From Eledone cirrhosa (Eukaryota), in assembly GCA_964016885.1 (NCBI GenBank), contig OZ024742.1, forward strand, positions 15,934,001-15,998,000: a stretch of DNA of 64,000 nt. Direction: 5' to 3'. Within the stretch, counting starts at the first letter, position 1; each line of letters begins with the position of its first letter. Of this stretch, positions 3,391 through 58,998 are shown in pieces. Both the position numbers and the translations under genes were made by a program. The notes below the pieces were generated by a model, which saw only the letters and a list, made by a program, of their open reading frames with translations, was not told the DNA's origin and did no database searches.

Positions 3391-6300
3391 ACAGTTGCAT
3401 TTATCTTGATTTATGTTCATACGAGTTATCACCAAGTCACAACCAGTGACCTCAAGAGACAACAAGGTCCGCCATGTTCAAGAAAGAACATACATACTCA
3501 CACATGCATCTTTAGTGTCTAGACTTGTGATGTACTTATATTGACAGAATCTTCCTTAGTATATGGGCAGTTCCAATTAGTACTATCTTTTGTATTTCTG
3601 CTATACGTGGGTTTCCTGGGATTTGCGATAAGTAATCATTAGACCCCTTAGGTATCATTCCCAGAGCGCCTACAACCACTGGTATTGTTTTAGTTCTCAA
3701 TTTCCACATTTTTCCAATTTCAATCTCCAGGTCCTTATACTTGCTCAATTTTTCAAATGTTTTTATAGATACATTCTTGTCTATTGGAACAGACATATCA
3801 ATTGGCAGGCATACCCTCTTTTGAAAGTCCTTCAATATTATATCAGGTCTATTTGCATCTATTTTTCGGTCTGTTTGGATGCTAAAGTTCCACAAGATTG
3901 AGATGTGATCTTTTTCAAGTATGGGAGGTGGTTGATGCTCCCACCAATTCTTTTGATGGGGCAGGTCAAAATGCTTACACATTATCCAATGTATGTATTG
4001 TGCAGCTCTGTCATGCCTGTTTAGGTATTCGGTTGGAGCTATAGGACTGCACATTGAAATTATATGGTCAATGGTCTCTGGTTGTTTTTTGCATACACGG
4101 CATAATGGGCTGCATCCATTTTTTATTATGTGTCTTGGTAATTTTTTGTTGGCAGACACTCATCTTGTGCTGATATAATCAGTCCTTCAGTCTCCGATTT
4201 TAGTCCAGAGGATGCCAACCACTGATGGGTTAAAGTTTTGTAAACATCAGGATTGTTAGCTCGCTCTGGGTATTTTCCATACAGAGGCTTTTCTTGCCAT
4301 TTCTTAGCCAGTTTCTGTAGCAGTTCTTTCTTTGCAGTTACTTTTACCTGCTTTGCTTTTTCTGTGTTTTCCATTTCAGCAGTAAATGGGACTTCTGAAA
4401 TTTGTAGTCCATTACTGTATCTTTGTGCATCTTTTGTAATGGAATATGATCTTTTGATGCTTTCGTGTTTCAAAACGAGTTTGATCATCCAATCATGTGA
4501 TTCCCTTAGATATGTAAATAATCCAATTGTTGCAGTTTTCAACGCAATGTCTAACTGGATTAACCCACGTCCTCCTTCTTTCCTAGGGAGATATATTCTA
4601 TCTATGTCTGCCTTAGGGTGATGCATTCTGTGCATGGTTAAGAATTTTCGAATTTTTGTATCGAGCCTACGGATCTCTGTACTTGACCAGTTGATGACAT
4701 TGTAACTGTAGGTTACTACTGGTATGGCAAGCGTGTTTATGGCATCGATCCTATTCCTTGCATTCAATTCCGTTCTTAAGATTGCTCTGACTCTGCGGTA
4801 ACATTCCTTCCTTATCCTTTCCCTTATTGTCGAGTGCTTGATTCCGTCTCCTTCACAAACACCTAGATATTTGTAAGTTTTTTCTTGATCAAGCTCTCTT
4901 ATCACGTTCCCCCGATCAAGATTAATGTCTGAACTCTTCAGCAGCTTTCCTCTGGTGAACGTTGCTTTGGCGCATTTATCCAGTCCAAACTCCATTTTAA
5001 TGTCATCACTGAACTGCTTCACAGTGGATAATAGCCCTTGCAATTGTTCATCATTTTTTGCAAATAGTTTCAGGTCATCCATGTAGAACAGGTGATTAAT
5101 GGTTTTGTCATAGACTTTATATCCATGTTTTGTTTCATTGAGCATTTTACTTAATGGTATAAGTGCGATGCAGAATAAAAGCGGTGATAAAGAGTCACCC
5201 TGAAAAATTCCACAATTAATATTAACTTCTCCAGCTTCCAGTGATTTTGTTTCACTATTCAAAAGGAGTGTCGTTTTCCATGTCTTCATACTGAATGACA
5301 AAAACCTCCTGACAACGGGGGATATTTTGAAAATCTCTAAACATTTTTCAATCCAACTGTGTGGCAAACTATCGAATGCTTTTTTATAATCTATCCAAGC
5401 AATCGATAGATTTTTGTGTCTATTATGACAATCTTCCAGTATCATTTTGTTAACCAGAAGCTGATCCTTACAGCCATATGAGCCTCGTTTACACCCTTTC
5501 TGCTCAATGGGAAATAGGTCATTTGTTATCAGGTGGTCATATGTGTATTCAGTTAGGACTAATGTTAAAATTTTATACATTGTGGTCAAGCAAGTTATCG
5601 GTCTGTAATTTTTGGGATTGTTTGTCTCATCATTCTTCGGAAGCAGGAATGTAATGCCGTTAACTAGCCATGATGGTATCTTTTCTGGCTCCTTAACTAT
5701 TTCATTGTAAAGTTGGGCTAACAGCTCATGAGACTCTGTGAAGGCATTTATCCAAAAGTTTTGTATTTTGTCTTTTCCTGGGGATTTCCATTTGCTGGTT
5801 TTTCTTAGAGCCAAGCGCAACTGTTCAACTGTTATATTTTCCCATATTTGTTCCTCAAGGTGAGCTGTATCTTTCATTTGTCTGTCTATCCATGGGGCAT
5901 GTATGTTATGAACTTTTTCTTCGGCCCAGATCTTTTCCCAGAATTCTTGCACTTCCTCCTTGGGTGGTATTGATTTAGCAGTTATTGTTGACTTACCAAT
6001 TTTTCTGTAGAAGTTTCTTTGGTTGTTTTTGAACATATTATTGTCCTTATAGAATCTAGATCGTTTTTCAAAGCGCCTTATACGAGCAGCTTTGGCCGAC
6101 ACTTTTTACTTGATTGTTTCTATCAGCATGTCTATGTCACATGTTGATCTTATACTGTACTTTTTTTTCAATTTTCTAAGTTTAGTTTGTTTAACACGTT
6201 CACCTACTTTATAGTTTGTTAAAATTTCTATGTCAGATCGGAGAAGGTTTATTTGGCGATTGATGTTATCTTGCCAAGTAGATTTCTTGTGGGAATTCCT

Positions 6301-6997
6301 TTGTTTTTTCATCTTCACTCCACATAAGTGAGTGGTGACTTTAGCCGATGCATAATAGAGATGATTTAAGTCAGTAATGTTTAGTTTGTTTGTGATGATA
6401 ATGTTTTTGAGAATTATGTTAGTCTTGTGTATTATCTTTTGGTTCTGTTTGGAGTTCTGGATCTTAGGGAGAGTGTCTCGTTCCCCCATGTCAGATTCTT
6501 TCATTTTCATCCATTCGATCATAATTTCATCCTTCAAGTTGGCAAGTTCATTCTCATTCATTTCTTTATCATTTACGATCTCATTATTTTCATTTGGAGT
6601 TTCATCCTGAGCATGCACTCCCTCCACTTTTTCGCTCCTTTCTTTAATTTGTTCTGTTGCCAGTGATTCCGCCCCAACGCTGGGATTCGAAGTGTTACAG
6701 TTTACCTCGTTTTCACTGACGCATGTTTCATTTTCCCTTCGCTGACTTTGTACTAATAGCTTGATCTGATCAATTTCTATATCAGTTAGTAACTTTTTTC
6801 TTACAATATTTCTTCGTATATTGGCTAGTTTGTTACTGTCAATATAGCCTCTGTTTTCGGGATGTTTCTTTTTCCAGTTGATATATGTCTGTTCTGTATT
6901 CGATGTATTTGATGGGTAGTACATGGCAGTGTAGAAAGCCTCAAGGACTTCTTTATTATCTTCCCTTGACCATTTTTCGCTCTTTTTCTTTGGATTT
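3391..6997 (-). mobile_element. R4/Dong-like family B, copy B1, 5'-truncated, (TAA)n tail
   Basis: RT (FYMDDLKL), CCHC (CRVCKKQPETIDHIISMC), RHD and RLE (NRPDIILKD...IDMSVP...KLSKY). TAA at 6106-6108 and a frameshift near 4130. Confidence 0.92.
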
Positions 6998-7094
6998 CTT
7001 CTTCTTTTTCTTCTTCTTCTTCTTCTTCTTCTTCTTCTTCTTCTTCTTCTTCTTCTTCTTCTTCTTCTTCTTCTTCTTCTTCTTCTTCTTCTTC

Positions 7095-7183
<89 letters not shown>
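6997..7183 (+). repeat. (TTC)n followed by (TTA)n microsatellite
   Basis: Directly visible. Confidence 0.98.
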
Positions 7184-7189
7184 GAATGT

Positions 7190-7705
7190 TCTTTGAAGGT
7201 TCCCATTATTGTTTTGTTTCAGTCAGTTTAAGATTTTACCCAATTGCTCAGTTCCATCGTTCTCCGATCATTCTGTTTCATTCTCAGTTTAATATTCTCT
7301 GTCTATCCCATTCATCTCTTTCTTTGCAATGGTTGCACTCTGTTTCTTCATTAACTTTACTTGCATTTATTTCAGGTTTGCCATTATCCCCTGTTCAGTT
7401 TTCTATACCCCGTTCCTTTTTTTGTGCCGTAACTCTTGATAGAGTCGTAAGGGTGACATACGGCGTTTCTTGGGCATCCCTCTCCAGGTATATCCCGTTT
7501 AATTTCTTTTAATTCTAGCCTTGAAAGGAAGTCATTTTACTTTATAGATCTTGCTTGTCCTGGGAGTTTCTGTTCTGTCCAGATTACCCATTATTTTCTT
7601 CTCCTCTTTCTTGTTTTTCACATTATTAGTATTTCATTGTGTCGTCACTGCATCACCAAGAACAGCTCTATATGCCTTGAGCATGTGAAGTGTTTACCAC
7701 TCACT
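7190..7705 (-). pseudogene. Highly decayed N-terminal fragment of an older R4/Dong element
   Basis: Minus strand near 7490-7580 translates EQKLPGQARSIK*NDFLSRLELKEIKRDI, versus Dong-A EQKLAGQARVIRTNGWISELELEELSREI. Confidence 0.7.
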
Positions 7706-9024: not shown

Positions 9025-12000
9025 TGCATTTATCTTGCTTTATGTTCATATGAGTTATCACCAAGTCACAACCAGTGACCTCAAGAGACAACAAGGTCCG
9101 CCATGCTCAAGAAAGAACATACATATTCACACATGCATCCTTAGTGTTTAGACTTGTGATGTACTTATATTGACAGGATCTTCCTTAGTATATGGGCAGT
9201 TCCCATTAGTACTATCTTTTGTATTTCTGCTATACGCGGGTTTCCTGGGATTTGCGATAAGTAATCATTAGACCCCTTAGGTATCATTCCCAGAGCGCCT
9301 ACAACCACTGGTATTGTTTTAGTTCTCAATTTCCACATTTTTCCAATTTCTATCTCCAGGTCCTTATACTTGCTCAATTTTTCAAATGTTTTTATAGGTA
9401 CATTCTTGTCTATTGGAACAGACATATCAATTAGCAGGCATACCCTCCTTTGAAAGTCCTTCAATATTATATCAGGTCTATTTGCATCTATTTTTCGGTC
9501 TGTTTGGATGCTAAAGTTCCACAAGATTTAGATGTGATCTTTTTCAAGTATGGGAGGTGGTTGATGCTCCCACCAATTCTTTTGATGGGGCAGGTCAAAA
9601 TGCTTACACATTATCCAATGTATGTATTGTGCAGCTCTGTCATGCCTGTTTAGGTATTCTGTTGGAGCTATAGGACTGCCCATTGAAATTATATGGTCAA
9701 TGGTCTCTGGTTGTTTTTTGCATACACGGCATAATGGGCTGCACCCATTTTTTATTATGTTGGCTTGGTAATTTTTTGTTGGCAGACACTGATCTTGTGC
9801 CGATATAATCAGTCCTTTAGTCTCCGATTTCAGTCCAGAGGATGCCAACCACTGATGGGTTAAAGTTTTGTCAACATCAGGATTGTTAGCTCGCTCTGGG
9901 TATTTTCCATACAGAGGCTTTTCTTGCCATTTCTTAGCCAGTTTCTGTAGCAGTTCTTTCTTTGCAGTTACTTTTACCTGCTTTGCTTTTTCTGTGTTTT
10001 CCATTTCAGCAGTAAATGGGACTTCTGAAATTTGTAGTCCATTACTGTATCTTTGTGCATCTTTTGTAATGGAATATGATCTTTTGGTGCTTTCGTGTTT
10101 CAAAACGAGTTTGATCATCCAATCATGTGATTCCCTTAGATATGTGGATAATCCAATTGTTGCAGTTTTCAACGCAATGTCTAACTGGATTAACCCACGT
10201 CCTCCTTCTTTCCTAGGGATATATATTCTATCTATGTCTGCCTTAGGGTGATGCATTCTGTGCATGGTTAAGAATTTTCGGATTTTTGTATCGAACCTAC
10301 GGATCTCTGTGCTTGACCAGTTGATGACATTGTAACTGTAGGTTACTACTGGTATGGCAAGCGTGTTTATAGCATCGACCCTATTCCTTGCATTCAATTC
10401 CGTTCTTAAGATTGCTCTGACTCTGCGGTAACATTCCTTCCTTATCCTTTCCCTCATTGTCGAGTGCTTGATTCCGTCTCCTTCACAAACACCTAGATAT
10501 TTGTAAGTTTTTTCTTGATCAAGCTCTCTTATCACGTTCCCCCGATCAAGATTAATGTCTGAACTCTTCAGCAGCTTTCCTCTGGTGAACGTTGCTTTGG
10601 CGCATTTATCCAGTCCAAACTCCATTCTAATGTCATCACTGAACTGCTTCACAGTGGATAATAGCCCTTGCAATTGTTCATCATTTTTTGCAAATAGTTT
10701 CAGGTCATCCATGTAGAACAGGTGATTAATGGTTTTGTCATAGACTCTATATCCATATTTTGTTTCATTGAGCATTTTACTTAATGGTATAAGTGCGATG
10801 CAGAATAAAAGCGGTGATAAAGAGTCACCCTGAAAAATTCCACAATTAATATTAACTTCTCCAGCTTCCAGTGATTTTGTTTCACTATTCAAAAGGAGTG
10901 TCGTTTTCCATGTCCTCATACTGAATGACAAAAACCTCCTGACAACGGGGGATATTTTGAAAATCTCTAAACATTTTTCAATCCAACTGTGTGGCAAACT
11001 ATCGAATGCTTTTTTATAATCTATCCAAGCAATCGATAGATTCTTGTGTCTATTATGACAATGTTCCAGTATCATTTTGTTAACCAGAAGCTGATCCTTA
11101 CAGCCATATGAGCCTCGTTTACACCCTTTCTGCTCAATGGGAAATAGGTCATTTGTTATCAGGTGGTCATATGTGTATTCAGTTAGGACTGATGTTAAAA
11201 TTTTATACATTGTGGTCAAGCAGGTTATCGGTCTGTAATTTTTGGGATTGTTTGTCTCATCATTCTTCGGTAGCAGGAATGTAATGCCGTTAACTAGCCA
11301 TGATGGTATCTTTTCTGGCTCCTTAACTATTTCATTTTAAAGTTGGGCTAACAGCTCATGAGACTCTGTGAAGGCATTTATCCAAAAGTTTTGTATTTTG
11401 TCTTTTCCTGGGGATTTCCATTTGCTGGTTTTTCTTAGAGCCAAGCGCAACTGTTCAACTGTTATATTTTCCCATGTTTGTTCTTCAAGGTGAGCTGTTT
11501 CTTTCATTTGTCTGTCTATCCATGGGGCATGTATGTTATGAACTTTTTCTTAGGCCCAGATCTTTTCCCAGAATTCTTGCACTTCCTCCTTGGGTGGTAT
11601 TGATTTAGCAGTTATTGTTGACTTACCAATTTTTCTGTAGAAGTTTCTTTGGTTGTTTTTGAACATATTATTGTCCTTATAGAATCTAGATCGTTTTTCA
11701 AAGCGCCTTATACGAGCAGCTTTGGCCGACACTTTTTACTTGATTGTTTCTATCAGCATGTCTATGTCACATATTGATCTTATACTGTACTTTTGTTTCA
11801 ATTTTCTAAGTTTAGTTTGTTTAACACGTTCACCTACTTTATAGTTTGTTAAAATTTCTATGTCAGATCGGAGAAGGTTTATTTGGCGATTGATGTTATC
11901 TTGCCAAGTAGATTTCTTGTGGGAATTCCTTTGTTTTTTCATCTTCACTCCACATAAGTGAGTGGTGACTTTAGCCGATGCATAATAGAGATGATTTAAG

Positions 12001-13896
12001 TCAGTAATGTTTAGTTTGTTTGTGATGATAATGTTTTTGAGAATTATGTTAGTCTTGTGTATTATCTTTTGGTTCTGTTTGGAGTTCTGGATCTTAGAGA
12101 GAGTGTCTCGTTGCCCCATGTCAGATTCTTTCATTTTCATCCATTCGATCATAATTTCATCCTTCAAGTTGGCAAGTTCATTCTCATTCATTTCTTTATC
12201 ATTTACGATCTCATTATTTTCATTTGGAGTTTCATCCTGAGCATGCACTCCCTCCACTTTTTCGCTCCTTTCTTTAATTTGTTCTGTTGCCAGTGATTCC
12301 GCCCCAACGCTGGGATTCGAAGTGTTACAGTTTACCTCGTTTTCACTGACACATGCTTCATTTTCCCTTCGCTAACTTTGTGCTACTAGCTTGATCTGAT
12401 CAATTTCTATATCAGTTAGTAACTTTTTTCTTACAATATTTCTTCGTATATTGGCTAGTTTGTTACTGTCAATATAGTCTCTGTTTTCGGGATGTTTCTT
12501 TTTACAGTTGATATATGTCTGTTCTGTATTCGATGTATTTGATGGGTAGTACATGGCAGTGTAGAAAGCCTCAAGGACTTCTTTATTATCTTTCCTTGAC
12601 CATTTTTCTCTCTTTTTCTTTGGATTTCTTGGTGGTGAGCATGGAGGGCCAACAGTAGGAGTATTCCGGTTATGGGAGGTCCCCAGCTCCGAAGTGATGG
12701 GAAGGTTTGAACCATTAGCTGATTTTTCGACCCCAGTCTTGTTCCTCTCTGAGGGACGCGGCCCTTTTTTACTCGGGTCACGGCCGATCCGGTATGAGAT
12801 TTTATCATTAGACATTTACTTTATTTTTTCGCGTTTTATCCTTATCCGCCAAGGGGTAATCATTTCGTGTTACCACTTCTAGAACGAGTGTCAACCAAGA
12901 CTAGAGGGGTCGTTCTCCCCTAGAGACATGGCTATTCCCCGCCGGCCGCCATCCCGGTATTTCTTGGTCACGGGGTTTTCTTTTTGTTGTTTTTTTTTTT
13001 TTTTAAATTGTTATTATCATGAGTGGTTCCTTAATGTGAGCATTGCGTGGCTTAAGAATGAAATGATTAATAATTGTCTCCACTCCAGGCACAAGGCCAG
13101 CAATCACCCAGTGCATTACAATAATATAATATACTTTTTGTTGTAGTTGGCTGTTATTGTTGTTGGCTATGTCGGTGGTGGTGCCGGGGCTTTTTATATT
13201 GTTGGTGAGGAAGGGGTGAGCCAGCAGTCCCATAATTGTTGATGTAGACGTTTGGCCGGTGGCAAGGTCACCAAGTCAATCTATTTATATCTTTTGCTAG
13301 CCTCTCTCTTGTCTAGTGATACCGCCACCTTCCCTTTTCTCTCTCAAGTTAACAGGGGAATAGTGTCAGTAGCATCGAATGAGTGGTGGCGGCGATGATG
13401 GATGTGGTGGGGTGGTGGCAGCGGTGGTGTTGTGGTTACTGATATAGTATCTATGAGTTTGTGTTCGTATGTTTAATATATATTTTTATTATATTTTGTG
13501 TTGACATATTCCCGTAAAATTTGAATTAAACATTTTTTAAAATTTGAGACAATAATAATAGTAATTATTATTATGATGCTGGTGAAATTGCCGTTATCTG
13601 GCTGTTATATTTAGTGTGATGGGATAGGTAGTGTATCAAGTTTCTGGTGTTGGTGAAATTGAAATTGCTGCTATTTGGCTGTTCTATATAGTGTAGACAG
13701 AGGGTGTTTTGTTCCATTTATAACCATTTTCTTTTTTTGAATACAAAATATATAATACAAAATTGAATATTTGAGCGATACAACAATATAATATGGATCC
13801 GAAACTTTATGGGACCTCATTCGGTGCATTTATGCAACATTTGTGCTAAGAATTATTCTTTCACAATTGATTTAAATATGTTAAAAATCAAAAAAC

Positions 13897-13947: not shown

Positions 13948-16293
13948 CCTTGAATCTCAATCATTGATGTTGGTTAACTGGAAAGTCCGTTGGATTGAAT
14001 ATCAAGCCACTACCTGCAGCCTCAGATATTCAGGACGTATCGGAGGGTTCTTGCTGTTCCAAGCAAGCATGCCTTTTGAAGCGTTCCAAAAAGCGTGAAG
14101 GGGCCGATTTTCTTTAACCATCCCTGGAAACTTTTGGAGATAGTCCCCAGTGCGCCTATGACAATCGGGATCACTTTGACTTCATGGCAGTTCCAGATCC
14201 TTTTCACCTCCCACTTTAGGTCCTGGTATCGGTTAATTTTCTCCCTCTCCTTCTCTTGCACTCTCGTGTCGAACGGGCAGGCCACATCCACAATCAGACA
14301 CGATCTTTTTTCTTTGTCCACAACCACCAGGTCAGGTCTATTGTGTTCCAGTTTTTTGTCCGTCTGTATCCTAAAATCCCACAGCACCTTCACCTGATTG
14401 TTCTCCATCACCGCCTCTGGCCTATGCTCATACCATTTCTCAGAATGTGGTAAATTGTTTACTTTACACAGGTGCCAGTGGATCACCCTGCCCATCACAT
14501 CGTGTCTCCAGCCCTTATAGTGGGTCTGGGCTAGGTGTTTACACTCGGACACAATGTGAGCCACAGTCTCCTCTCTCTCTCCACAGATCCTGCACAGTGG
14601 GCTAGCCTCCACCTTGTAGATATGGTGCTTCAACCACTTCGTTTTGAGGGCCTGCTCCTGCGCAGCCATTAGCATTCCTTCTGTAGCCTTTTTGAGGTCT
14701 CCTCTTCTCAACCAGTTCCATGTCTGTGGATCTCTAAATTCAGTTTTCTCAAAGAAGGTACTATGAAGGGATTTTCCCTTAAGGCTGCTCTTCCTCCTTG
14801 ATGTTATTTCCTCCGTGGACATCCCCTGGCCTACTGTCCCCTCCTTCAGTACAGTTCTGAGCATTGGCTCCTTACTATAGGTCACGTATTTGTATAGGTT
14901 GTTTTTCTCCATCTGAACACAGTCCTCTATGCTGAAAAGACCTCTTCCACCCTCAGATCTCCTTAGGTAGAGTCTGTCGACATCACTCCTCTTGTGGAAC
15001 ATGTTGTAGATAGTCAATAGCTTCCTAGTCTTCCTATCCATTTCTTTTTGTTCAGCAACATTCCATCTCAGAATTCCCGCACTGTACCTAATAATAGACA
15101 CAGCTCGGGAATTTACTGCGCTTATGGCATTTCTGCTGTTAAGATGTGACTTCAATACGCTCCTTACTCTCCGAATGTATTCAGTTCTTAACAATTCCTT
15201 CATGTTTTTGTTCTTTATGCCATCAGCCTCCAGAACGCCCAAATACTTGTATCCTTCCTCAGAGTCAATTTCCTTTATCATCTCACCTGTTGGTATCTGG
15301 ATCCCGTTACTTCTGCTCAACCTACCCCTCCTCATCACAATGACTCCACATTTACCAATACCAAACTGCATACATATATCACTGCTGAAAATACGGACAG
15401 TGTCAACAAGCACATCCAACTCCTTCTCACTTTTCCCGAAGAGCTTAAGATCGTCCATGAAGAGGAGGTGATTGATGGTAAGCTCTCCCCTTCCCAACTT
15501 GTATCCTGCTCTCACTTTTCGTAGCATAATGGTCAAGGGCATCAGGGCAAGGACAAACAACAGAGGGGACAGGCTATCTCCCTGGAAGATACCTCTCTTG
15601 ATCTTCACGCTTCCCAAGGATACTCCAGTTGATGTCAACTCTGTCTCCCAGGCCTAGCAACTGTCTGATGTTATCTGCCACCTTGAAGATCTCCAGGCTT
15701 TTGGTGATCCAGGAATGGGGCACCATGTCAAATGCCTTTCTGTAGTCTATCCATCCCATGGCAAGATCAGTGTGTCTCCTCCTGCAATTCCCCATTACCA
15801 TCTTATCAATAAGTAACTGGTCCTTTGTACCACGTGACTTCTTTCGGCATCCTTTCTGTTCGTCCGGTAACAAGTTGTTTGTGTGGAGGTGATGGTAGAT
15901 TTCCTCAGACACAATGCTCGTCAACAGTTTCCACATTACGGACAGACATGTGATAGGTCTATAGTTGGTAACATCATTACCCTTGATTCGGTCTTTCATT
16001 ATCAGAACTGTGGTACCTTTTGTCAACCACTCTGGCACCTCACCCGACACCAAGCAGTCATTGAACATGGCCGTCAGCTTCGGGTGCAGGGATGTTAAAT
16101 GTTTAATCCAATACCCCTGCACACCATCTGGGCCTGGTGATTTCCAGTTGGTTAGTTTTTTGGCATGCCCCTTAAGAGTTTCAACTGTGATACTCAACTC
16201 AGTTTGTTGTTGTGCCTGCTCACCGATCTCATTCTGTACTGTCTCAATCCACCCTGCCTGGGCATTGTGTCTAACATCCTGCTCCCATATTCC
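13948..16293 (-). mobile_element. Dong family A copy A2, 5'-truncated
   Basis: RT (LFMDDLKL), CRICGEREETVAHIVSEC, RHD, NRPDLVVVD...VDVACP. Small deletion/frameshift near 15650; (TTA)n flanks. Confidence 0.92.
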
Positions 16294-16378
<85 letters not shown>

Positions 16379-16379
<1 letters not shown>

Positions 16380-17110
16380 TGAGACTCAGTCATTGATGTT
16401 AGTTAACTGGAAAGTTTGTTGAAATGAATATCAAGCTACTATCTGCAGCCTCAGATATTCAGGACGTATCGGAGGATTCTTGCTGTTCCCAGCAAGCATG
16501 CCTTTTGAAGCGTTCCAAAAAGCGTGAAGGGGCCAATTTTCTTTAACCATCCCTGGAAACTTTTGGAGATAGTCCCCAGTGCGCCTATGTCAATCGGGAC
16601 CAGTTTGACTTCATGGCAGTTCCAGATCCTTTTCACCTCCCACTTTAGGTCCTGGTATCGGTTAATTTTCTCCCTCTCCTTCTCTTGCACTCTCGTGTCG
16701 AATGGGCAGGCCACATCCACAATCAGGCACGATCTTTTTTCCTTGTCCACAACCACCAGGTCAGGTCTATTGTGTTCCAGTTTCTTGGCCGTCTGTATCC
16801 TAAAATCCCACAGCACCTTCACCTGATCGTTTTCTATCACCGACTCTGGCTTATGCTCATACCACTTCTCACAATGTGGTAAATTGTTTACTTTGCATAG
16901 GTGCCAGTGGATCACCCTGCCCATCACATCATGTCTCCTCCAGCCTTTATAGTGAGTCTGGGCTAGGTGTTTACACTCGGATACAATGTGAGCCACAGTC
17001 TCCTCTCTCTCTCCACAGATCCTTCACAGTGGGCTAGCCTCCTCCTTGTAAATATGGTGTTTCAACCAGTTCGTTTTGAGGGCCTGCTCTTGCGCAGCCA
17101 TTAGCATTCC

Positions 17111-17201: not shown

Positions 17202-20200
17202 GGCGACCTACGTAGTAAATCGTATCATCGTGAGCTCCGCAAAGGTTTGTTATTTCCGTTTGTTAAAAATTGTCATTTATGGAAAATTTTATTGTCAACT
17301 GTTTATAAGCGGACATACATTGTTTTCCGAAAAGGACACCCAAAAAGATTGGGGCCTTGTGCCCAAAATTTAAACTTTTATTATTATCAAAAAAATTTCT
17401 TTGAAAAAAATGGCAAATTCACCTCTGCACGAAGCAGCTGAAAGCCTTCCTCACAAATTAACACCTCACACCGACACCACCATTGTAAATGTTACTACGT
17501 TTGCCAACACAAAAAAAATATAAGCACTAGCAATATTTTAAATTTGTCTCAGGCAGACATTCATTTCCCGCCATTACCAATGACTGCAGGTGTTAAAGCC
17601 TCCACCACCACCACCACCACCGCGACAACCACCACCACCACCACCATCACCACCACCGCGACAACAGAAACAAAAGAAGAAAAAAATAAATTAACTCGTG
17701 ATGTCGAAATGAAATCAAGCAAAATGGACTCTTCCCCACCAAAGACGACTGACGTCACCACCACCACAACTGAAACTAAAATTAATATTAACGATAGCAA
17801 CAACAACAACAATGAAATTATAAAACCCCCCTCAGTTTCGCCAGAGTAGCAAAACAGTTCGAAGCATTTACGGTAACTCAGGAGGATTTAGAAAATGCCA
17901 AACAAATGGTAAAGAAAGATGGGTACAGGGTCAGCCTCACCCCCCACCTAATAAAATGGAGCATCGGCGCCTATGCACCGTGTCGTATAGAACAATAAAT
18001 GTAAAATCGCGCCGAATGGAACGGCCATCCGAGTCCCAAATCCAAAAAGCTTTGGGACATGTGTGGGCAAGAAAAACCCACATCAGACGTGGGCAAAAGT
18101 ATGGAACCGTGGACGTGTTCTTTGAAACACCAGAGGAGGCTAGAGAACACTCCATGGCCCCATTAAGAAGTGACGACTTCACACTCGTCCCAAGCTATTG
18201 TGGCCAGAGACTCGTAAAGATCAGGGTGACCCACGTTCCACCGGCCATCGAAATTCCTTGGCTAATAGCGGCTGTCCTCGCCGTCATCGAAGCCAACACG
18301 AAAATAATAGCAATAGCAAAAGAAAAGCAGGAGCTCCTGATCCAAGCGGACCAAAAAAGCATTGAGGAAATCCCAGAGGTAATAGACCTCACTGACGGCA
18401 GCCACCTCACGGTAATTGTGAAGGAAATGGTGAAGGAACCCACCTAAGGGCTTTCTGCCCTCAGGCTAAAAGGTTGTGGCCACCTCTCCTACCCACCCCA
18501 GTGACACAACCATCAACACCACCAGTAGCAGAGATGGCAGAAACAACTGTAGCAACAACAACAGAAGCAACTATAACAGCAACAACCCCAGCAACAGTAG
18601 CAAAACCAACACCACCACCACCACCAGCAAAACCAACACCACCACCACCCAACGCTTCAGAACTAGCACCAGCGCCTACACCATCCACCACGCCACAACC
18701 AAAACTAACGGCTGTGAAGGATTTTCCACTCCCTGGCCTATCACACTGGAGACAGATTGTGACGACGAGGAGTGGGAAACGATATCCGGAACAAAAAAGA
18801 AACCAAAAAAGAAAAAATTCTCTTCCTTCCCCCTCCAAAAACAAAATACAGAGGGAAACAAATAAATTAAGAAACAAAAAAGTTAGGACAGATATGCCAC
18901 CATCCACACCAGCATCACCAAACCCATCAACCCAAACACCAACACCATCACCATCATTAACCCCAACACCACCATCACCTACACCACAAAAGTCACCAAA
19001 ATGCGAAACAGAAACAAACCCACAACAAACGCAAACAAAACAAAACAACCAAAACGATACACACTACACAGCATTAAATTTGAACAACAAGCAATTATTA
19101 CACTACATCCAACACAACACCAGCATCACAGAAAAAGACTACACAACAACCCCAAAATTCACACCACCTCCACACATACAAATCACTCGCATCACACAGA
19201 AAACGTACATGACACTAAAACAAAAATTCCCCAAAGACATCGGAAACTTCCGACAAGCACTCTCCAGGAGGATTTATAAGGACATCCTTCCTGAGGAGGC
19301 CACAAGCAGTGAAAAGGATGGAAAAACCGTCCTTCCCCTACGAGAAGTAAGGTAAGTGGTCTTTCCCATCTTTTCCACTCCTTTTCAACATACCTCACTC
19401 AGAATAGGCAGCATAAATTCGCGTGGCTTGGGGTCGTCATGGAAGCAGGGCCACCTGCTCAACGACCTCAGGTCACTAAACATAGATGTAGTGGCCATCA
19501 GCGAGACCAGAATCTCCGAAGCACAGGCTTTCGCACCGATCTTCGGCGGCTACGATGTGTACGCATCTCCCAGCCGTCCGGGATCGGGGGGAAGAGTTGC
19601 TGTGCTTTTTCGGAGAGGTTTGGATCTTGCCATACGGGCCATCTTCCTGGACCCAGAAGGTAAGTTGGTGGTGCTGGACGTGACCAGCGGAGACGGCCAA
19701 GCTTTCAGGCTAGTGGCCGTCTATGCCCCGACAGGAGCAGAGCGGCCTGATTTCTTCCGGCGTCTGGAGACCTTTCTTGGAACGTCCCGCTCTTTAGTGT
19801 TAGTGGGCGACTGGAACGGGATCTTAGATGCACGCTGGGATTGTGTGGGATTAGTGGATAAGGAAGGAGGGTGCAAGAGTCTCACCAACCTGCTCAGACG
19901 TTTTGAACTGTCTGACAGGTACCGAATGGATTTCCCAAATGTACGAATGTGGACTTGGACAAATCGCATAGGGTCATCCAGATCATATCTAGATAGAGTA
20001 TTTTGTAGGGAAATAGATAGGTCTAGCATAGGCTGTCCACAATTCAAGATAGTCAGCTACACGGACCACAAATTCGTGATCTGTGTGCTTGACTCAGATA
20101 GGCTTCATAGACGAGGACCCGGCTTAGGTTTAGTAAGACTTTAGCAATAGAGAAAAATAGAGCAGAGGGAGAATTAGTTAGAAAATTAGATGAGGCGCTT

Positions 20201-22530
20201 AGCAAAGGCATCGCGACCGACGTACTTGCGGCGAAATTGGCCCTTGACCAATTCTTCAATGCAAAGCACGAAGGCTGCGTTGTCAGAGCTAGGGTGCGTG
20301 CTCTCAGACACGAGGGGACGAAAGCCGTTCAATGGGCCCGAGTGGCGGAGGCGCGTCGTGGCAACAAAGCCACGATCCGGTCTTTGGTGGACCACGACGG
20401 GCGCATGCTACTCGATCCCGGGCAAATGTGTGAAGCTTTTCAGCGACACTTCGCTCAACTGTTCGGGGGCAGTGGCGGGCCGGATCGAGGGATGGACTTT
20501 AGTGTCTACCTCGACGGACTGCCGCGGCTTTCGGCCACTGAGGCGGAGTGTTGCGAAAAGCCGATAACAACCGCTGAAGTACGGGATGCAATGACTAGTT
20601 GCACAAGGGGTAAATCGCCTGGTTTGGATGGTCTGCCCTATGAACTTTACGTACAAATGCCAAACTTGTTCGGAGGCCTCTTGGCGGACGTCTACTGCAA
20701 CTGGCAATAGAACGGGAGAATTCCCAGCTCTGTGAGCCGAGGAGCGGTGGCGCTGCTGAGAAAGGATCCGAACAAGGGGGATAACATAGATAATTTTAGG
20801 CCCATAACTCTGCTAAACACAGAGTTCAAGATTTTGGCCAAGGTGCTAGCAAAGAGGTTGGCGCTTGTCGTTGGTGGTCTGGTGGGAGAGGCACAGACAT
20901 GCGCCATTCCCGACAGATCCATCCACGACAACCTCCACCTCATGCGATACATCGTAGAGAGGGTAGCTAGGGAACCTGGCACGGGTGGGTCTTTGATCAA
21001 TTTAGATCAGTCGAAAGCCTTCGATAGGGTCGACCATCGTTACCTAGCGGCAGTCCTGAGGGCGGCTGGCTTTGGGCCCGTCTTCAGAGGCTGGATCGCT
21101 GCCATGCACAGCGACATCTGCTCTGTAGTGAGAGTGAACGGTCACCTTTCGGAACCGTTCAACATCATGCGCTCGGTCCGCCAAGGATGTCCCCTCTCGT
21201 CCCTATTGTACGTATTGACTCTCGAGCCATTACTGCACAAACTGGAGACGTTGAGGGGGGTCCGCTCGAACTAGGATGCGGAAGATCCGTGTCAGCATAT
21301 GCCGACGATGTCACCGTAGTGGTGTCGAACGCCAAACACATCGAGGCGATCGGCACTACACTAAGAGAATACGAAGCGGTGACAGGAGCAATGATCAACC
21401 AGGAAAAGTCAGTGGGCCTGCAGCTCGGCACCTGGAGAGGCAGGTCCATGCCGTCCAACAGCGTCGTCGGGCGCTGGACGGACGGACCGGTTAAATTGCT
21501 AGGGGTCTGGTTCGGTCCAGACCTCCAGACGGACAAAAACTGGGACGAGGTGACCAGCAGGGTGGCTTCGAGAGGGAACGCTTGGAGACTGGAATGTCTT
21601 CAGGCGCTCACAGCCCTCGACCAATCGGGCAATGTGATCGGTGGAAACTCCACCTTGGCGTTCTATAGGGGATTAGTGGAGGGGAAGAGCGACGACGTAC
21701 TTGGAGAAACTCTAGGCGTCGACGAAAATCAACTAGCCAATCTCTTCGGAAGGACTTTCGGGCCGGGGCCTATGGACAACTTCCAGAAATCCCTGGCCTG
21801 GCAGTGCTACCGAGGAGCTTTGCCAGTTCGGGATAAACTCTACAGGCATAGAGGTGCCGTCAGCCGGGCATGTCCGAGATGCGCGCAGGGCGACGAAACC
21901 GTCCTGCACGCACTCGTCCAGTGTCCGAGCATTGCTGACTTGTGGGTTTATGTCGAACACCTGCTGTCACGTGTAGGACGGATCCAGCTATCAGCTGAGT
22001 CTATCGTGAGGATTGCCCCGCCCCCTTCCTTTAGCCGTGAAGGGCAGGCAGTTTTTAGCTGTCTGGTGGCCATGGCGAAAGAGATAGTATGGTGGACACG
22101 TTTGAAAGGGCTGAAGACGAGCACTTACCTCTTCGGTGATGCCCTGATTAACTTTTTCAAATTTCATTTGAAAAGGAAAATCAGGGTAGAGAGGGAAGTG
22201 CTCTCTTCCCAGCATTTTGTTGAAAGATGGGTGAGAGAAGCAAGTATGGCCCGAATGAATGGGCCTTCTCTGAGTATGTGTCTGTAAATTAAAGGTGGAA
22301 AACTGGGAGAGGGCACTTGCCCTGGTGGTCAGGGCCACTGTGGTCTTTTAATGGGCTTTCTCCACAAATGTCCCTCGGAAGTCTCCCCCCTATTGGGGAA
22401 TTTTTCTTTGTTATTTTATTTCAACCTCCGTTTTTTTTACACGCAGAAATGCCCATTTGTACCGTCCTGTATTGTCCTGTACTGTCCTTAATGTCTACTT
22501 TATGTAAACCCTTGTGGTTAATAAAGAAAA

Positions 22531-22532
<2 letters not shown>
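17202..22532 (+). mobile_element. Tx1/L1-clade LINE family A, copy 1 (full-length ends, internal deletions)
   Basis: ORF1 fragments 17410-19355. ORF2 has APE (INSRGL, ISET, VYAP, LVGDWN, SYLDR, TDHK), RT (FRPITLLN, LDQSKAFD, VRQGCPLS, YADD) and CCHC (CPRC..DETVLHALVQC). AATAAA precedes the (TTA)n tail. Confidence 0.92.
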
Positions 22533-22573
<41 letters not shown>

Positions 22574-25500
22574 GGTCTAAGCGGACGTATTTTGCTCGCT
22601 CACAGTAAGTCGCTTTATTTGCCTGTTAAAATTATTTGTTGTTAAATATTTCTTGTTGTGTAAGGGATATAAGCCCTTAGACTTTGCCCCGTGAAGGGGA
22701 AAGTATAATATTTGGGCCTTTTGGCCCAAATATTTGAACTTTGTTTAACATGCTAAAAAATTTACGAAGAAAAAAAAACATGGCTGAGCCACGCCCCCCA
22801 GTGATATGTCGGCTGTTGTGCGACAACGACGTAGAAGTTGAGAGGAGCGCTACAGCGAAATTAACACACATTGATAACACAAACACCACCACAAACAAGG
22901 TACACAAAGACACCAATGATACCAATAAGAACTCTAATTTTGAAAAAAATGACAGTCACAGCGACAACGAAAATACAGATAACAAAAAAAAAAAAATAAC
23001 AAATACAACAACAATATCAACACCACTAACATGAAAACAAATAGCGACAACACCAACAGCAACAATACCAACTGCACCGAGAACAACGGTGGCAACAAAG
23101 ACAACAATGATAACAGCGACAGTGCTAACAACAACACCAACAAGAACAACGACGACAACACCCCCAACGAAAACAAGAACACTTTCGCTGCGGCAGCAGC
23201 CAAAAAAAGGCCATGCTTCAACATGGACCTCTCAAACAAAGATGAAAAGTTGGCCCAGGCATGGAAGCTCATCAAGCAAGAGCAAACTTGGGCCAACTTA
23301 ACTGTCCCGGTAGAAGCTATTGAGGCAGTGGAGCGCAAAACGGTGCATTATAGATGCATCTCAGCACAAACCAAAAGGGTAGTTTTAATCCCACAAGAAG
23401 ATGTCGAAGTCGCGCTGAGGTGCATCAGAGAAGACACCGAATATATAGAGAGGGCCGGACAGTACGGCACCATTTCGGTGTTGTTCAAGTCAGAAGCCCT
23501 TGCTATGAAACACGCTATGACTCCTTGCAAAACCAGCAAGGTCATAATGTACCCTCCCACATGGGAAAAAGAACGGCCCGTCTCCGCATTCCCAGAATCC
23601 CAGCAGGACTTGACATGTGGTGGCTACTGGGATGTGTGATTGTGGAAGGAACGGATACAGTCCCTATAGAAGTGACCAGAACGGTCAGAGAGGACTGGTC
23701 CGGGGTTGACCTGGAGATCCTTCTCCAGATCAGGCCCGAGAATGTGAAGACAATCCCGGACCACATCCGCCTTCAGAATGGGATGGTCATTCACATTATG
23801 ACCGATGGCAAACGGCCGCAGTGTTTTGTTTGTGGGGAAAAAACCCATTTGCGAGCCTTCTGCCCACAACTGCCGAAAGAGACAAGGGGTCGAAAGGCTC
23901 CACTGCTGCCGACGCCGGGGCGAGGACCACAACCAACACCTGCACCGGAAAAACCACCAACAACAACACCAATAGAAAGACCACCACCAACATTGACCAC
24001 CCAGGGGGGAAACGAGGAAAGCTGTCAAATTACCCCTCCCCCCCAAAATACACACACCAATAAAACCTTAAACATACATACAGACACACTTACAGACACA
24101 GACCCCTCATCTACCAGTAGTGAAAATGAGGGAAATCCAAAATCCCCCAAAATACAAAAAAGGAAACACAAAAAGAAAAAAAAAACTCAACAAAGCACAA
24201 AAGCACCCCCAATAAAAAACGCAGACACCACCCACGCAAACATCTCTCCAATAACACCAACATCAACACCACCATCACCATCACCAGAATCCCCCAAACG
24301 CAAACAACCGAAACAGATGCAAGAACAAATATACACACAAACATCTGAAACCACAGACACCGCACTCACAACAAACACAGATACAACCGAAACAACACCA
24401 CCAAAACCATCACCACCACAGCCACGCAAACAAATAAAATCACACCAACAAAACATAAAAAACTTCGTACTCGTCAGGAGGGCCAACAAGGAACTGATGG
24501 CCCTCGTAGCATGAAGTGAAAATATACAAAAAGAGGGGGAAATTTTTAAATCGAGCACATTTCGCATGCCGGAAGATTTGGCTTTGGTGCGAATGTCGCT
24601 CGACATATTCAAAGAAATACGAGACAGCTTTCCTCGGGACGTGGGAACCCCGAACGTAAAACCCACTTCAAGACTTTTAAAGGGGTTCCCAAAAGAAACC
24701 CTACTAACTATGGAGGTCGAACAACCCGACCTTCACAAGAGCCCGGAAGTTAAGTAAACCTTCGTCTCTCTCTGTTTAACCTGCCAACATGGCCGTATTA
24801 AGAGTAGGATGTTTAAATGTTCGAGGCCTGGGATCGTCCTGGAAGCAGGGTCACCTGCTCAACGACCTCAGGTCTATAGAAATGGATGTAATTGCAGTTA
24901 GCGAGACCAGGATTTCCGACACGCGCGCACTAGCCCCCAATTTCGACGACTATCAGATCTTTGCATTTGTTAGTCGGCCGGGAATGGGAGGCGGGGTGGC
25001 AGTGCTGTTTAGGAAAGGCCTGGATCTCGAGGTAAGGTCGATCTTCCGGGACCCGGACGGGAAGTTGGTGGTCCTGGACGTGAACAATAATGAAGGTGGT
25101 GCCTTTAGACTGGTGGCCGTCTATGCTCCTACTGGGGTAGGACGGCCGGACTTCTTTAGACGCCTGGAAGCCTTTCTGGGTACGTCTCGCCTTTTAGTGT
25201 TAGCGGGGGACTGGAACGGCATCTTAGACGCACGCTGGGACTGTGTGGGAGTATCCGATAGGAGCGTGGGGTGCAAAAGCCTCAAGAACCTGATCAGCCA
25301 GTTCCAACTGTCTGACAGGTACCGACTAGATTTCCCTAATGCGCCAGTGTGGTCCTGGGCTAACCGCATAGGGTCATCTAGATCGTATATAGACAGGATA
25401 TTCATTAGGAAAATAGACAGAAATAGTGTAAGCTGTCCACGTTTTGAAACGGTCGCCTATTCAGATCACAATTTTGTGATCTGTATGGTCAACCTAGATA

Positions 25501-53141: not shown

Positions 53142-54944
53142 TTACCTCTCTGCGTCCCGGGTATCGGGCTGCACAATTTCCATTAGGGTGGGGGATGGGT
53201 TGTTGGGTGTGGTGGTGGTTTGTGGAAGTGTGGGGGCATCAGTGTGTTGTGTGGTTGGGGAGCTTGGAGTTGTGTGGGTGTTTGGGGAGGGAGTGGGATA
53301 GTTTTTTAGGAGGACGCGGTTAATGGGCCCGACGCAGGGGGGACCCACGTCCTCTTTAAAATTGTTTTTTAAAGTTTTATAGGTGTCCTGTGGGGCCTTA
53401 ATCATTTTGAGGTGGGGTAAATCCCCTGCCTGGGTGAAGTTAGGCCCTTGTGTTTTTATTAGATTGTTGTTGTACACAATGTTTAACAGTTTTTTGTTTC
53501 TTGTGTTTATGTATGTGTATGCATGTTTTTGTTTTTGCGTGGTGTTTTTTGTTTGCTGTTGTTGTGAGCTCTTTTGTGTTGGTGTCAGTGTTATGTTTTG
53601 GGGAGGGGGTTTTTTCATTTGTGTGTCTGAGGTGTGTTTTCTTTTTTTTCTTTTGATTGTGTGGAAGTGCTCCTCCTCGTCTGACGACGAACTAGGGTCA
53701 TCTTCCGCGTTGGAGGGGAGGGGTATATTTTCGGGTTGTGTTTGCGGTACGGGTGTTTTGGAAATTGTTTTTGTTTTTTGAGTGGAGGGGATGGGTTGGA
53801 CATTGTTTTGTTTTGGTTTGAGCTGTGGTGGTTGTTTTTGTAGTGGTAGTTGTGGTGATTGTGTTGGTTGTGCAGTTGTTGGTGGTGTAGGCAGGATTGG
53901 GGTTTTCTTATTAAGTTGGGGACAGACAGCCCTCAGGTGACCTCTGGTTCCGCAGAGGTAACACGAGGGCCGTCTACCCTCAACGGTAATGTTGATGAAG
54001 GTTAGATCATCCAGTATGACGCGTTCAGGGATCTGGGCGATCCTTTCGGGCCTCATTTGAACTACAAGTTCGAGGCTCGTTCCACTGAACGCGTCACCCG
54101 ATGCCTTTCCCATGGACACCAGCATGTCATCCTCCACGTCCAGAAAACCTGTCAAAACCCACCATATGTCCATAATCGGCAGGATGGTGTGGATTTTTAT
54201 TTTTTGTGTTCTTCTACCCATGTACGTAGGGTAGAAGGTGTATGCGGTGGATGTGATTGGTTTGATGGACAGTTTCACTGCTGTGTCCCTGTCCTTCATG
54301 AGAATGGATAGACTCCCGTAGAGTCTATCCTTCTGAATGAAGGTGATGTCCTTCATGACGTCTTTTAAAACCAGCTCTATCTCACTCTGTGATGGTTGAG
54401 CTGGTTTTTTACTTTTGTTCGAGATTGTCCTAAACATGACCGTGTTTAGGAGTCTCTGGCTTTTTAGTTCCGGGGGGGGGGGGGGGGGATGGATTGTGAA
54501 TGAACCATTTTCTCCGTACACTATATATTTTTTCGCATCCGCCAGTAGCTCCTTCGCTTTTGTTATATCTACTGGCAGATAGTCGAGGGTTTTCCTTGTC
54601 GTCTTGGCGAAGGAGAAATTTTGTTTGTTTGTGTTGTTGTTGTCGTTGGTGGTGTTGTTGTTATCATTGTTGTTGTTGTCACCGTTATTGGTCTTGTTGT
54701 TGTTGTTATTCTTATTGTTATTGGTGTTGTTTTCGTCCGTCGCATTGTTGTTGTTGTTGCTGTTGCTGCTGGTTCTTTGGGTTGTTGCCATGGCAACGTC
54801 AAGTTGTCGGTTAACAGGTGGAGAGAATTCTTCCTCTGGCTGACCTTTCTTCTTGACCTCTGCTACTGTGACAGTGGCAGGGGGAAGCTGTAAGTTCATC
54901 TTCCCCTTTCCTCCTTCGAATTTTGGTGAAGAAGCTTCGGCCAT
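53142..54944 (-). CDS. Tx1-C ORF1 (~600 aa; Asn-rich tract, CCHC knuckle)
   Basis: Open from MAEASSP to DAER*; contains CYLCGTRGHLRAVC. Confidence 0.85.
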   Translation of the reverse strand: MAEASSPKFEGGKGKMNLQLPPATVTVAEVKKKGQPEEEFSPPVNRQLDVAMATTQRTSSNSNNNNNATDENNTNNNKNNNNNKTNNGDNNNNDNNNTTNDNNNTNKQNFSFAKTTRKTLDYLPVDITKAKELLADAKKYIVYGENGSFTIHPPPPPPELKSQRLLNTVMFRTISNKSKKPAQPSQSEIELVLKDVMKDITFIQKDRLYGSLSILMKDRDTAVKLSIKPITSTAYTFYPTYMGRRTQKIKIHTILPIMDIWWVLTGFLDVEDDMLVSMGKASGDAFSGTSLELVVQMRPERIAQIPERVILDDLTFINITVEGRRPSCYLCGTRGHLRAVCPQLNKKTPILPTPPTTAQPTQSPQLPLQKQPPQLKPKQNNVQPIPSTQKTKTISKTPVPQTQPENIPLPSNAEDDPSSSSDEEEHFHTIKRKKRKHTSDTQMKKPPPQNITLTPTQKSSQQQQTKNTTQKQKHAYTYINTRNKKLLNIVYNNNLIKTQGPNFTQAGDLPHLKMIKAPQDTYKTLKNNFKEDVGPPCVGPINRVLLKNYPTPSPNTHTTPSSPTTQHTDAPTLPQTTTTPNNPSPTLMEIVQPDTRDAER

Positions 54945-55386: not shown

Positions 55387-57990
55387 TGATATGTGGTGAC
55401 AGTCGAGTTTGCAATTTTCAACTGTAATGAGATGGGTAAATTTACTACCTTTTATACATTTTATACAGAGAAAAGTGGCTCCAGAATGCAAAGCCCTGTA
55501 AACTGTATTTCGACCAATCAGTGTGTAGTTTCACTGAATTACTACAGCTGATTGGTTTAAGCGTCACGGCTGGTTGAGCATGCTAACGACCAATAGTCAT
55601 ACCCAACGTATCAATCGTTTTGCTTTTTGAAATGATGAAAATAGCATTTTCTATTAATCATCACCATCAACATCACTTTTATTATTATTATTATTATTGT
55701 TGTTGTTGTTGTTGTTAGTGGTCGTGGTCATAGTGGCGTCATAACCCCTCGGCGTTATTATTGTTCATTTAGCTTGGGTTTGAATTTATCAATAAAATTC
55801 TTTTCTTTGATTTTTCTCTTGATTTCACTTGGGCTGTGTAATTTGTAGAATGGGAATATTATAAATATTCCCTGACCACATGTTGCCAGGTGGCCGCTTA
55901 GGGGTATCTGACGGACATTTGGGTCTCTGATTTGTTGACGGTGTACCCGTGCACGTTCCGATAGTGCATTTCCAGTTTGACCGACATATAGTTCTTCACA
56001 ATTCGGGCATTTAATGCAGTAAATTAGATTTCTGCTTTTGCAGTTCATATTTGCATTTGGGAATATTTTTCCAGTTTTTGTTTTCATATATTGACCGGCG
56101 TGTTGGATTGACATGTGCCGCATCGATTATCATTGCATTTAGATACAGTGAATGATTGGTCTTTGTTGTTAAGGTCAAACCTTGCTTTTGTTAGCAATTG
56201 CTTCAAATTTTTTGGCTGTCTTTTACTAAGAGTCAAAGATCGATCTGTGATTAAGCCTTTTAATTCATTACTTTGAGCAATGATCGGTAGGTTTGCTTTG
56301 GCAGTGTTGAATATATTCTGGTGACATGGGTTGTGTGTCATTATAAATGGTATGACCAGTTCTTGGTTTCTTCTTCCTTGGGTTGTTCTAAGTTGTTGTA
56401 TAGGTATTTTTATAGCCCGCTGTATGCCATTTTCTATAAGTAGAGATGGGTATTTTTGTTTGAGCAAAAATTCTCTTAGTTCTGTTAGGCGTTTGTACCT
56501 GGTATTCGTATCTTCTACAATGGTACAAATTCTTCTGGCTAGGCAGTATGGGATGTTGCGTTTTGTATGAGGTGGATGGCACGACTTAAAATTCAGATAT
56601 TGATGGGTGTCTGTGTGTTTATAATATATATCCGTGGTAATGGTGGTGTCGTTTTTGATTATCATTATATCTAGGAATGGTAATTTGGTCCTACTCATCT
56701 CTTTTGTGAATTGGAGAGATGGGTGTAGGTTATTCAGGAGGATATTGAACTCATCCAGAGTATCTAGAGATTCTGTCCAGATGATGAAACAGTCGTCAAG
56801 GTATCTCTTCCAAGATTTTTCAATGTACTTTCTAAAGTCAGTACTATATTTTTCCTCTATTTCTTGGTAGAGTTGTTGTTCTAAGTATCCCATTACAGAG
56901 TTCGCGTAAACGGGAGCAAACTTCGTTCCCATCGCTGTGCCTCTAATTTGGATGTAATTCTTTCCATTGAAGAAGAAAGTGTTGTTTTCCAGAATAAGTT
57001 TAACTGCGTCTAATATAAATGGCGCTGTGAATCTAATGGGAATCACTTCTCTATGTTTTTCCACCCAGTATTTAACCGCCTTTATTCCTAAATCATGTGT
57101 AATGTTGGTGTAAAGGCTTACCACATCAAAACTGAGTAGAAGTGAATTCGTTTCCGTGGTTTTGGGAAGATGGGACAGGAAGTCGATATCATCCCGGATG
57201 AAACTGGGTATGTGAATACATAGTGGTTTCAAAATAATGTCAACAAAATTGCTTAGACGGTGAGTGGGGCATGTTGGACCAGCTATAATAGGTCTAAGTT
57301 TTAAGTCTTTTGGGTGTAATAATTTAATGTACTCACTGTTTTGTTCTCTTACTGCCAGTTGTATTTCTTTTGACTTGTGAACTTTCGGTAGGCCATACAG
57401 GTTGCTGGGTTTCGGCTCAAAATTGGTGATGTAGTCTCTTTCCTTATCAGTAAATGAGTTGTGGTATTTTGAAGCCAGGTTGTTGATCTTCTTCATGATG
57501 TTGTGGTCTATATTTGACGGTATTTCATGATAGAATGTTGTGTCTTTCAGTTGTTCCTCAACCAAATCCTTGTAGTATTCAGTATCCATTATAACAACTG
57601 CACCCCCTTTATCTGCTTGTTTAATTATTATTGTTTTATCATTTTGTATACGTTTAAGTGCAGACATTTCTGATTTGTTAATGTTTGGCCTAACATTAGT
57701 ATTATGTCTAAGAGGAAATTTAGACAGGATGTCAATGTATTGGTCGAGATAAATATTTCTTCCTTTTGGCGGAGTGAAATTTGATTTATTCTTTACTAGT
57801 GATTCATCACTCTCATTATTTTTATCAGCGAAGAATTCTACAAGACGTAATTTTCGACAGAATTCTTGGGTATCCTCCTTCAGTTCTTGGTGGTTGACTG
57901 TTGGAGTCGGTGTGAATTTCAGTCCTTTTGACAGAATTTGCATTTCATCATTGTCAAGATCTCTTTTAGATAAATTAATTATTTTAGGAT

Positions 57991-58951
<961 letters not shown>

Positions 58952-58952
58952 A

Positions 58953-58998
<46 letters not shown>

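Follow-up and report, generated by a model that had tools for sequence, protein, structure and literature searches.

The window analysed here is a 64,000-nucleotide stretch of contig OZ024742.1 in the Eledone cirrhosa assembly GCA_964016885.1 (positions 15,934,001 to 15,998,000), and all coordinates below refer to it. It holds two copies of one LINE family, A, along with copies of families B and C. ORF2 of these elements encodes an APE endonuclease, a reverse transcriptase (RT) and a zf-RVT domain (Pfam PF03372, PF00078 and PF13966), and its best PDB match is human L1 ORF2p (E 3e-52). A separate ORF1 of 570–660 aa contains a conserved CCHC knuckle, C-x2-C-x4-H-x4-C, and has no match to any Pfam entry. 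The elements are L1-group LINEs; they are putatively of the Tx1 clade, and their protein matches bore no Tx1 name. Copies lie in tandem, head to tail at a spacing of ~5.8 kb, and their tails consist of (ATT)n, (TATC)n or (TA)n. An ORF2-start pattern has 10,851 matches in the 3.0 Gb genome.

Other retroelements occupy positions 137–2065, 4126–7218, 9528–12371, 14022–17023, 30783–33014, 46481–47773 and 56084–61210. They have an RT without an APE domain, with one weak GIY-YIG match, and several are nested and mutually 97–98% identical; being of different kinds, they are unsuitable as controls. A long C/A-rich tandem repeat at 38600–43040 contains open frames of more than 1,000 codons on both strands. 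Within ORF1, positions 18500–19100 show a summed contig depth in sequencing run X6 that is hundreds-fold above the rest of the element. The features around the junction of ORF1 and ORF2 are as follows, with a slash marking the proposed exon–intron boundary.

17824–19355, forward strand: ORF1 remnant of the first A copy, frameshifted, with its last 319 codons open
19349–19357, forward strand: donor AAG/GTAAGT of the first A copy, with GTAAGT at 19352–19357 and the ORF1 stop TAA at 19353–19355
19358–19389, forward strand: pyrimidine-rich spacer after the A donor, together with the donor the 5' strand of a predicted helix
19390–19392, forward strand: decayed ORF2 start codon of the first A copy
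19390–22287, forward strand: ORF2 of the first A copy (APE endonuclease, RT, zf-RVT), broken, shorter than intact copies and ending in TAA
19400–19402, forward strand: proximal CAG that would bound a 51-nt mini-intron, not conserved as an in-frame YAG
24747–24755, forward strand: donor of family B in phase 1, decayed here (TT for GT at 24750)
29322–29330, reverse strand: donor of the second A copy, with GTAAGT at 29322–29327
53140–53148, reverse strand: donor GAG/GTAAGT of family C, with the ORF1 stop inside it and the ORF2 ATG at 53115–53117

The original prediction described a consensus 5' splice donor that overlaps the ORF1 stop codon. GTAAGT does lie at 19352–19357 (forward), 29322–29327 (reverse) and 53140–53145 (reverse) with the ORF1 TAA within it, the pyrimidine-rich spacer follows, and the distances from donor to the AG of a conserved Arg codon in ORF2 are 51, 52 and 42 nt, all as predicted. 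The donor of B, given as AA/GTAAAC near 24754, is actually at 24750 and has decayed to AAG/TTAAGT; other B copies carry AAG/GTAAGT in phase 1. The ORF2 ATG is indeed mutated in both A copies of the window, and in the first of them ORF1 and ORF2 share a frame only through one lost ATG base. As a family trait this does not hold, since in 29 of the 30 best A matches the ATG is intact and the Arg-codon AG lies at a distance of 52 nt. Likewise, a stop inside the donor is found in the A copies and in C, but it is not a general rule across families.

Seventeen families, with one representative each and 63–96% nucleotide identity among them, were compared, and donors and acceptors were scored as plain match counts against the splice-site consensus. 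The donor scores 8–9/9 in 16 of the 17 representatives, which bears out the expectation that it would be conserved in related families. Across the 16 intact donors, G at −1, G at +1, T at +2 and T at +6 are invariant and the flanks vary; the variants GTAAGT, GTAGGT, GTGAGT and GTAATT all lie within the 5' splice-site consensus. When each element's GT sites (111–244 of them) are paired with the U1 5' end taken from the host genome, the donor is the best partner in 13/16 cases and among the top four in 16/16. For the first 30 of the 10,851 ORF2-start matches by position, the best upstream donor reaches 8–9/9 in 26, 7/9 in three and 6/9 in one, whereas an equal-sized control window within ORF2 of the same matches gives a maximum of 6/9.

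The motif is read in different phases. ORF1 crosses the donor in phase 2 in ten families, in phase 1 in five and in phase 0 in family H, with open frames of up to 761, 642 and 280 codons, respectively. Family K is uncertain: it is scored as phase 2 although its single copy reads the motif in phase 0, a choice that leaves the count of phase-matched stops given below unaffected. Phases of F and M are taken from motif homology, their open frames being short. The C-termini of two ORF1 homologs from other assemblies, P0090 and P0092, are QGK and EGKS, matching what a donor in phase 1 would specify. A donor-like AAG/GTGGGT also occurs at alignment column 3463, 61 nt ahead of the ORF2 stop, at 8/9 in 12/17 families; it codes for E-R-W-V and may be forced by the protein.

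In an outgroup relative with ~41% ORF2 identity, found as tandem repeats in a public bin, the donor lies just behind the ORF1 stop in 31/31 ORF1 ends, and the ORF2 ATG follows 13 nt after it. Loci L259–L300 are animal-type LINE tandem arrays filling contigs of a GTDB bacterial bin, and they are probably host DNA. In L298, a related family, ORF1 ends without a donor. More distant L1/Tx1-like controls were drawn from 92 loci, of which 43 had a long ORF2 and start motif and 39 of these an ORF1 end, the others being left out; none of the 39 scores 9/9, and two, both of one family, score 8/9.

One family is joined at a donor, and the window contains the point at which its downstream part begins:

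19307–19309, forward strand: CAG after which the P/A hybrid (family A2) continues, a putative cryptic acceptor for the family P donor

Family A2 consists of family P ORF1 up to the P donor, followed by A sequence. Up to the last exon base, its ORF1 shares 88–93% identity with the parent P; from the first base past the CAG, the hybrid shares 95–98% with A. Of 98 matches obtained when the parent was sought, 30 were fetched: 24 continue with the donor (20 of them exactly) and six are the hybrid. Because the hybrid joins P ORF1 at its donor to this CAG, the donor has probably been used: a P transcript was probably spliced into a tandem A neighbour and then retrotransposed. A template switch at the shared AG could also have produced such a join. 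The hybrid bypasses the element's own candidate acceptor at the ORF2 end. Among 86 junctions compared for hybrid joins, a second case, L085, connects a donor-homologous position to a CAG; it is a single copy, and its closest relatives are 72–79% identical with no parent among them. L168 and L170 are other inter-family chimeras, one running from B in its 5' part to A at its 3' end and one with ORF1 exchanged in register, so not all hybrids join at the donor. The donor is real, conserved and probably functional, and the reading of the motif as a 5' splice site is supported by its conservation, its rank as U1 partner and the P/A hybrid family.

A partner for this donor may lie far downstream, around the end of ORF2. 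The following features of the window are relevant there:

22293–22322, forward strand: purine-rich stretch after the ORF2 stop of A, predicted 3' strand of the helix (tested on the A copy L159)
22427–22446, forward strand: T tract and CAG in the 3' UTR, as in A, A2 and L, candidate distal acceptor for A
22520–22574, forward strand: AATAAA and (ATT)n tail of the A copy, directly adjoined by the 5' end of B
28146–28175, forward strand: ORF2 end of B, with the stop TAG at 28170–28172 in an acceptor-like TAG/G
49633–49707, reverse strand: ORF2 end of C, with a pyrimidine-rich run, the stop TAG at 49681–49683 as candidate acceptor (3,465 nt from the donor) and then the purine-rich helix partner
49425–49430, reverse strand: AATAAA of C, 250 nt after the candidate acceptor

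In 15 of the 17 families, an AG is present at the ORF2 stop (TAG) in a pyrimidine-rich context, and this column ranks first among 796 AG columns of the alignment. TAG/G at the ORF2 stop is seen in 14/17 families versus 1/38 distant elements. The distance from donor to candidate acceptor is 3,388–3,481 nt, or 1,522 nt in the L copy with its deletion, and AATAAA, where found, follows the acceptor 201–266 nt further on; the J and K copies have no readable 3' end. Families A and A2 end ORF2 with TAA and have no AG there. Outgroup 3' UTRs contain a long pyrimidine tract and a TAG ~200 nt before AATAAA in 21/21 cases. A second donor occurs 14–40 nt after the ORF2 stop in the outgroup (23/23 ends) and in L298, which also has a 3' UTR pyrimidine tract with TAG. 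In L260–L296 and L298, this second donor is followed by an acceptor 144–239 nt on, suggesting that the outgroup families have a short intron within the 3' UTR.

Joining the donor to the candidate acceptor in the real phase would place a stop no more than three codons after the junction in 10/15 families, versus 7/30 other-phase cells, the families not being independent of one another; in L, I, J, K and X1 (5/15), there is no stop near the junction. An advance prediction of phase held in one of two new families. Silent-site constraint at the ORF2 end is unremarkable (rank 62 of 573 windows), and inspection of the family alignment by eye gave no clear conserved branch point.

The two flanks of ORF2 are also complementary. 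In 13/17 families, the best predicted partner of the donor and spacer, among 157–356 windows each, is the 50-nt stretch that follows the ORF2 stop; shuffle p is ≤0.04 in 14/17. With double centring, a family's own partner is favoured by 7.7 kcal/mol, a value reached by none of 20,000 permutations over 14 families, although shared descent inflates this contrast. The helix is weak in D (17/351 windows equally good) and B (7/349); with longer windows, L becomes best and B and D remain weak. In all four outgroup subfamilies, the strongest predicted pairing of the donor and ORF2 start is with the final 60 nt of ORF2, and this helix covers the start codon. The predicted helix accounts for the pyrimidine-rich spacer and the purine-rich stretch, and perhaps in part for the AG/GT at the ORF2 end; the acceptor likeness there may be a helix by-product, as AG/GT pairs with the ACC of the spacer in several predicted helices, and coding constraint likewise confounds its top rank. 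It does not explain the donor. Because the donor stays while its pairing partner and reading phase change, it appears to be maintained independently of the helix.

Exact-pattern searches of the genome gave no ORF1-only retro-copies, with families N, L, J and X1 outside the distal-splice patterns and diverged copies missed by such patterns. Four of the searches returned no match at all. One spliced-copy pattern was found in 0/50 examined of 54 matches, the next base of the other four excluding a mini-intron junction; another gave 0/8, with eight forward and no reverse matches, so that perhaps one strand only was covered. Unspliced counterparts are numerous, at 255 D junctions and 7,728 3' junctions. 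Even truncated copies would show splicing of ORF2, because its junction would be ~230 nt from the 3' end. Since no ORF1-only retro-copy was found, a retained ORF2 intron needs strict cis preference, which is described for L1 in the accessible part of one report (PMC5860796). Contigs of five of the six listed runs, all of unrecorded kind, were mapped; no spliced RNA was seen among the joints listed, and in four runs none is listed over the 220-nt junction. A 469-nt contig of run X6 (kind unrecorded; L004:1602, depth 3.1) matches up to the base immediately preceding the donor, its remaining 382 letters being other sequence. Partial fits are common in this run (10 of its 27 contigs), and the agreement may be due to chance. 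Protein searches for spliced C-termini gave nothing decisive, and viral contigs contained no relative of the elements.

We consider the chances evenly balanced that ORF2 is a retained alternative intron whose splicing yields an ORF1-only mRNA, as in copia. More tentatively, a co-evolving helix across 3.4 kb may switch between ORF1-only mRNA and full-length template, and splicing into tandem neighbours may create new autonomous families by ORF1 swap. At the DNA level, this proposal draws on a donor present in three phases and in the outgroup, a site resembling an acceptor either at the ORF2 stop or within the 3' UTR, complementary flanks of ORF2 and a hybrid joined at its parent's donor. The donor would open an optional intron of 3.4–3.5 kb that spans all of ORF2. 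U1 would bind it on the nascent RNA, and the acceptor and the helix partner would be transcribed together some 3.4 kb further on. Where splicing comes first, the message would still encode ORF1p almost unaltered, with a stop close to the junction or right at it. Nonsense-mediated decay spares transcripts whose junction coincides with the stop codon. Should helix formation come first, it would bury the donor together with the beginning of the last exon, and the RNA would stay full-length, yielding ORF2p through the ATG of ORF2 itself and also serving as template for new copies. ORF2p would probably be made by re-initiation, as in L1 and SART1; because ORF2 has its own start 25–52 nt after the donor, re-initiation on unspliced RNA is its likely route. 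Rarely, the donor would be spliced to the ORF1 end of a tandem neighbour, giving an RNA that still encodes ORF2 and can found a hybrid family.

The original prediction envisaged a different outcome, in which a mini-intron deletes the stop and fuses ORF1 to ORF2 in frame; its length is taken here as 39–66 nt. Reading frame permits this in 7/17 families within 70 nt: A, A2 and L have an in-frame CAG, while N, B, F and F2 have an in-frame TAG at 53–59 nt past the donor. However, in eight of the 17 families the only in-frame candidates nearby are AAG or GAG, and in H and X1 the first 90 nt contain none, so a conserved in-frame proximal YAG is lacking. The Arg-codon AG, proposed as the acceptor, forms an in-frame CAG in just three of the 17 families (A, A2 and L) and is absent in X1. 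Fusion is impossible in the outgroup, where the stop precedes the donor and the ATG follows so closely, and the ORF2 ATG context is retained in 16/17 families, the exception being H with ATA. In H (L096, L100, L139–L141), this ATA overlaps the ORF1 TAG in 5/5 copies, one with an open ORF2 of 1,146 codons, and a non-AUG start is possible. If fusion made ORF2, copies without the spacer would be expected, since the RNA is copied in cis; yet the spacer is present in all 31 family-A pattern matches that could be the spliced form. The lack of a listed contig joint over the junction points the same way. Fusion is the least probable of the alternatives considered, and the fallback offered alongside it, a distal acceptor or a U1 site, fits better.

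The main rival follows the second half of that fallback: the donor would be a docking site or decoy for U1, rarely spliced, that protects or routes full-length RNA, the helix would serve ORF2 re-initiation or bring the 3' end to nascent ORF2p, and hybrids would be accidents of a strong donor. This is unlikely in our judgement but deserves serious consideration, given that no spliced copy of the element's own ORF2 intron turned up in the genome pattern searches, that the outgroup and L298 have a second donor past the ORF2 stop, that the outgroup helix covers the ORF2 start codon and that a splicing-independent role of U1 at the EVD donor is described in the accessible part of its report (PMC5580714). 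A protective U1 would, however, have little to suppress, as A[AT]TAAA is absent from nine of 17 predicted introns and occurs once or twice in the rest, and a decoy leaves unexplained the top-ranked acceptor column, the pyrimidine tracts with TAG in outgroup 3' UTRs and the phase-matched stops. The P/A hybrid, the L085 join and the head-to-tail arrangement would also suit a donor maintained mainly for splicing into tandem neighbours, reshuffling ORF1 onto other ORF2s; with two lineages among 86 junctions, such events seem too rare to fix six to nine bases in every family, and we regard this as improbable. Still less probable is a motif that arises as a side effect of the helix or of the sequence around the stop codon and plays no part in splicing. 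The donor is base-paired in many predicted helices, GTRAG in phase 2 always contains a stop, and distant elements without the donor also have pyrimidine-rich spacers after the ORF1 stop; yet the donor persists through changes of partner and phase, its variants keep to the splice-site consensus, and the hybrid is joined exactly at it.

Splicing of ORF2 as a retained intron would resemble the production of GAG mRNA in the Ty1/copia elements Drosophila copia and Arabidopsis EVD, which also have a donor at the end of the structural gene; the likeness is one of working and not of family. According to the accessible parts of the reports, copia and EVD conserve a U1-type donor at this position and make structural protein in excess over enzyme, and in Drosophila copia the intron is ~3 kb and the short RNA ends in the 3' LTR (PMC5580714, PMC7197481). 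Those are LTR elements with a single GAG-POL frame, whereas the present elements are two-ORF LINEs in which ORF2 starts at its own ATG and a predicted co-varying helix would span the intron. Splicing has been shown for copia; for the LINE it is predicted from the DNA.

Among LINEs, the microsatellite-targeting Kibi and Koshi of the Tx1 clade share two ORFs, the APE, RT and zf-RVT domains and tandem copies behind microsatellite tails, but the accessible part of their description mentions no splice signals or helix (PMC4494074). Human L1 SpORF2 and SpIREs also involve splice sites inside LINE RNA, and spliced L1 RNA is retrotransposable; as far as the accessible text of these reports goes, the L1 introns remove parts of the 5' UTR or ORF1 and the products are called dead ends, whereas here ORF2 would be removed (PMC2896524, PMC5860796). 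The ORF2 start shortly past the donor recalls the termination–reinitiation of L1 and SART1, the latter needing a downstream structure according to the part of the report available; here, there is no stop–start overlap, except possibly in family H, and the predicted structure is long-range (PMC5972666). Compared with human L1, the donor is conserved over deep divergence, and a spliced hybrid has probably founded a family.

LINEs are thought to set the ratio of ORF1p to ORF2p by inefficient re-initiation on one bicistronic RNA, and L1 splicing is treated as a dead end. The literature searched, with most subscription papers and Repbase Reports outside it, contained no report of such a splice strategy for a LINE. 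If the proposal is true, this lineage would be a LINE counterpart of the copia strategy, and the hybrid family suggests splicing as a route to ORF1 replacement.
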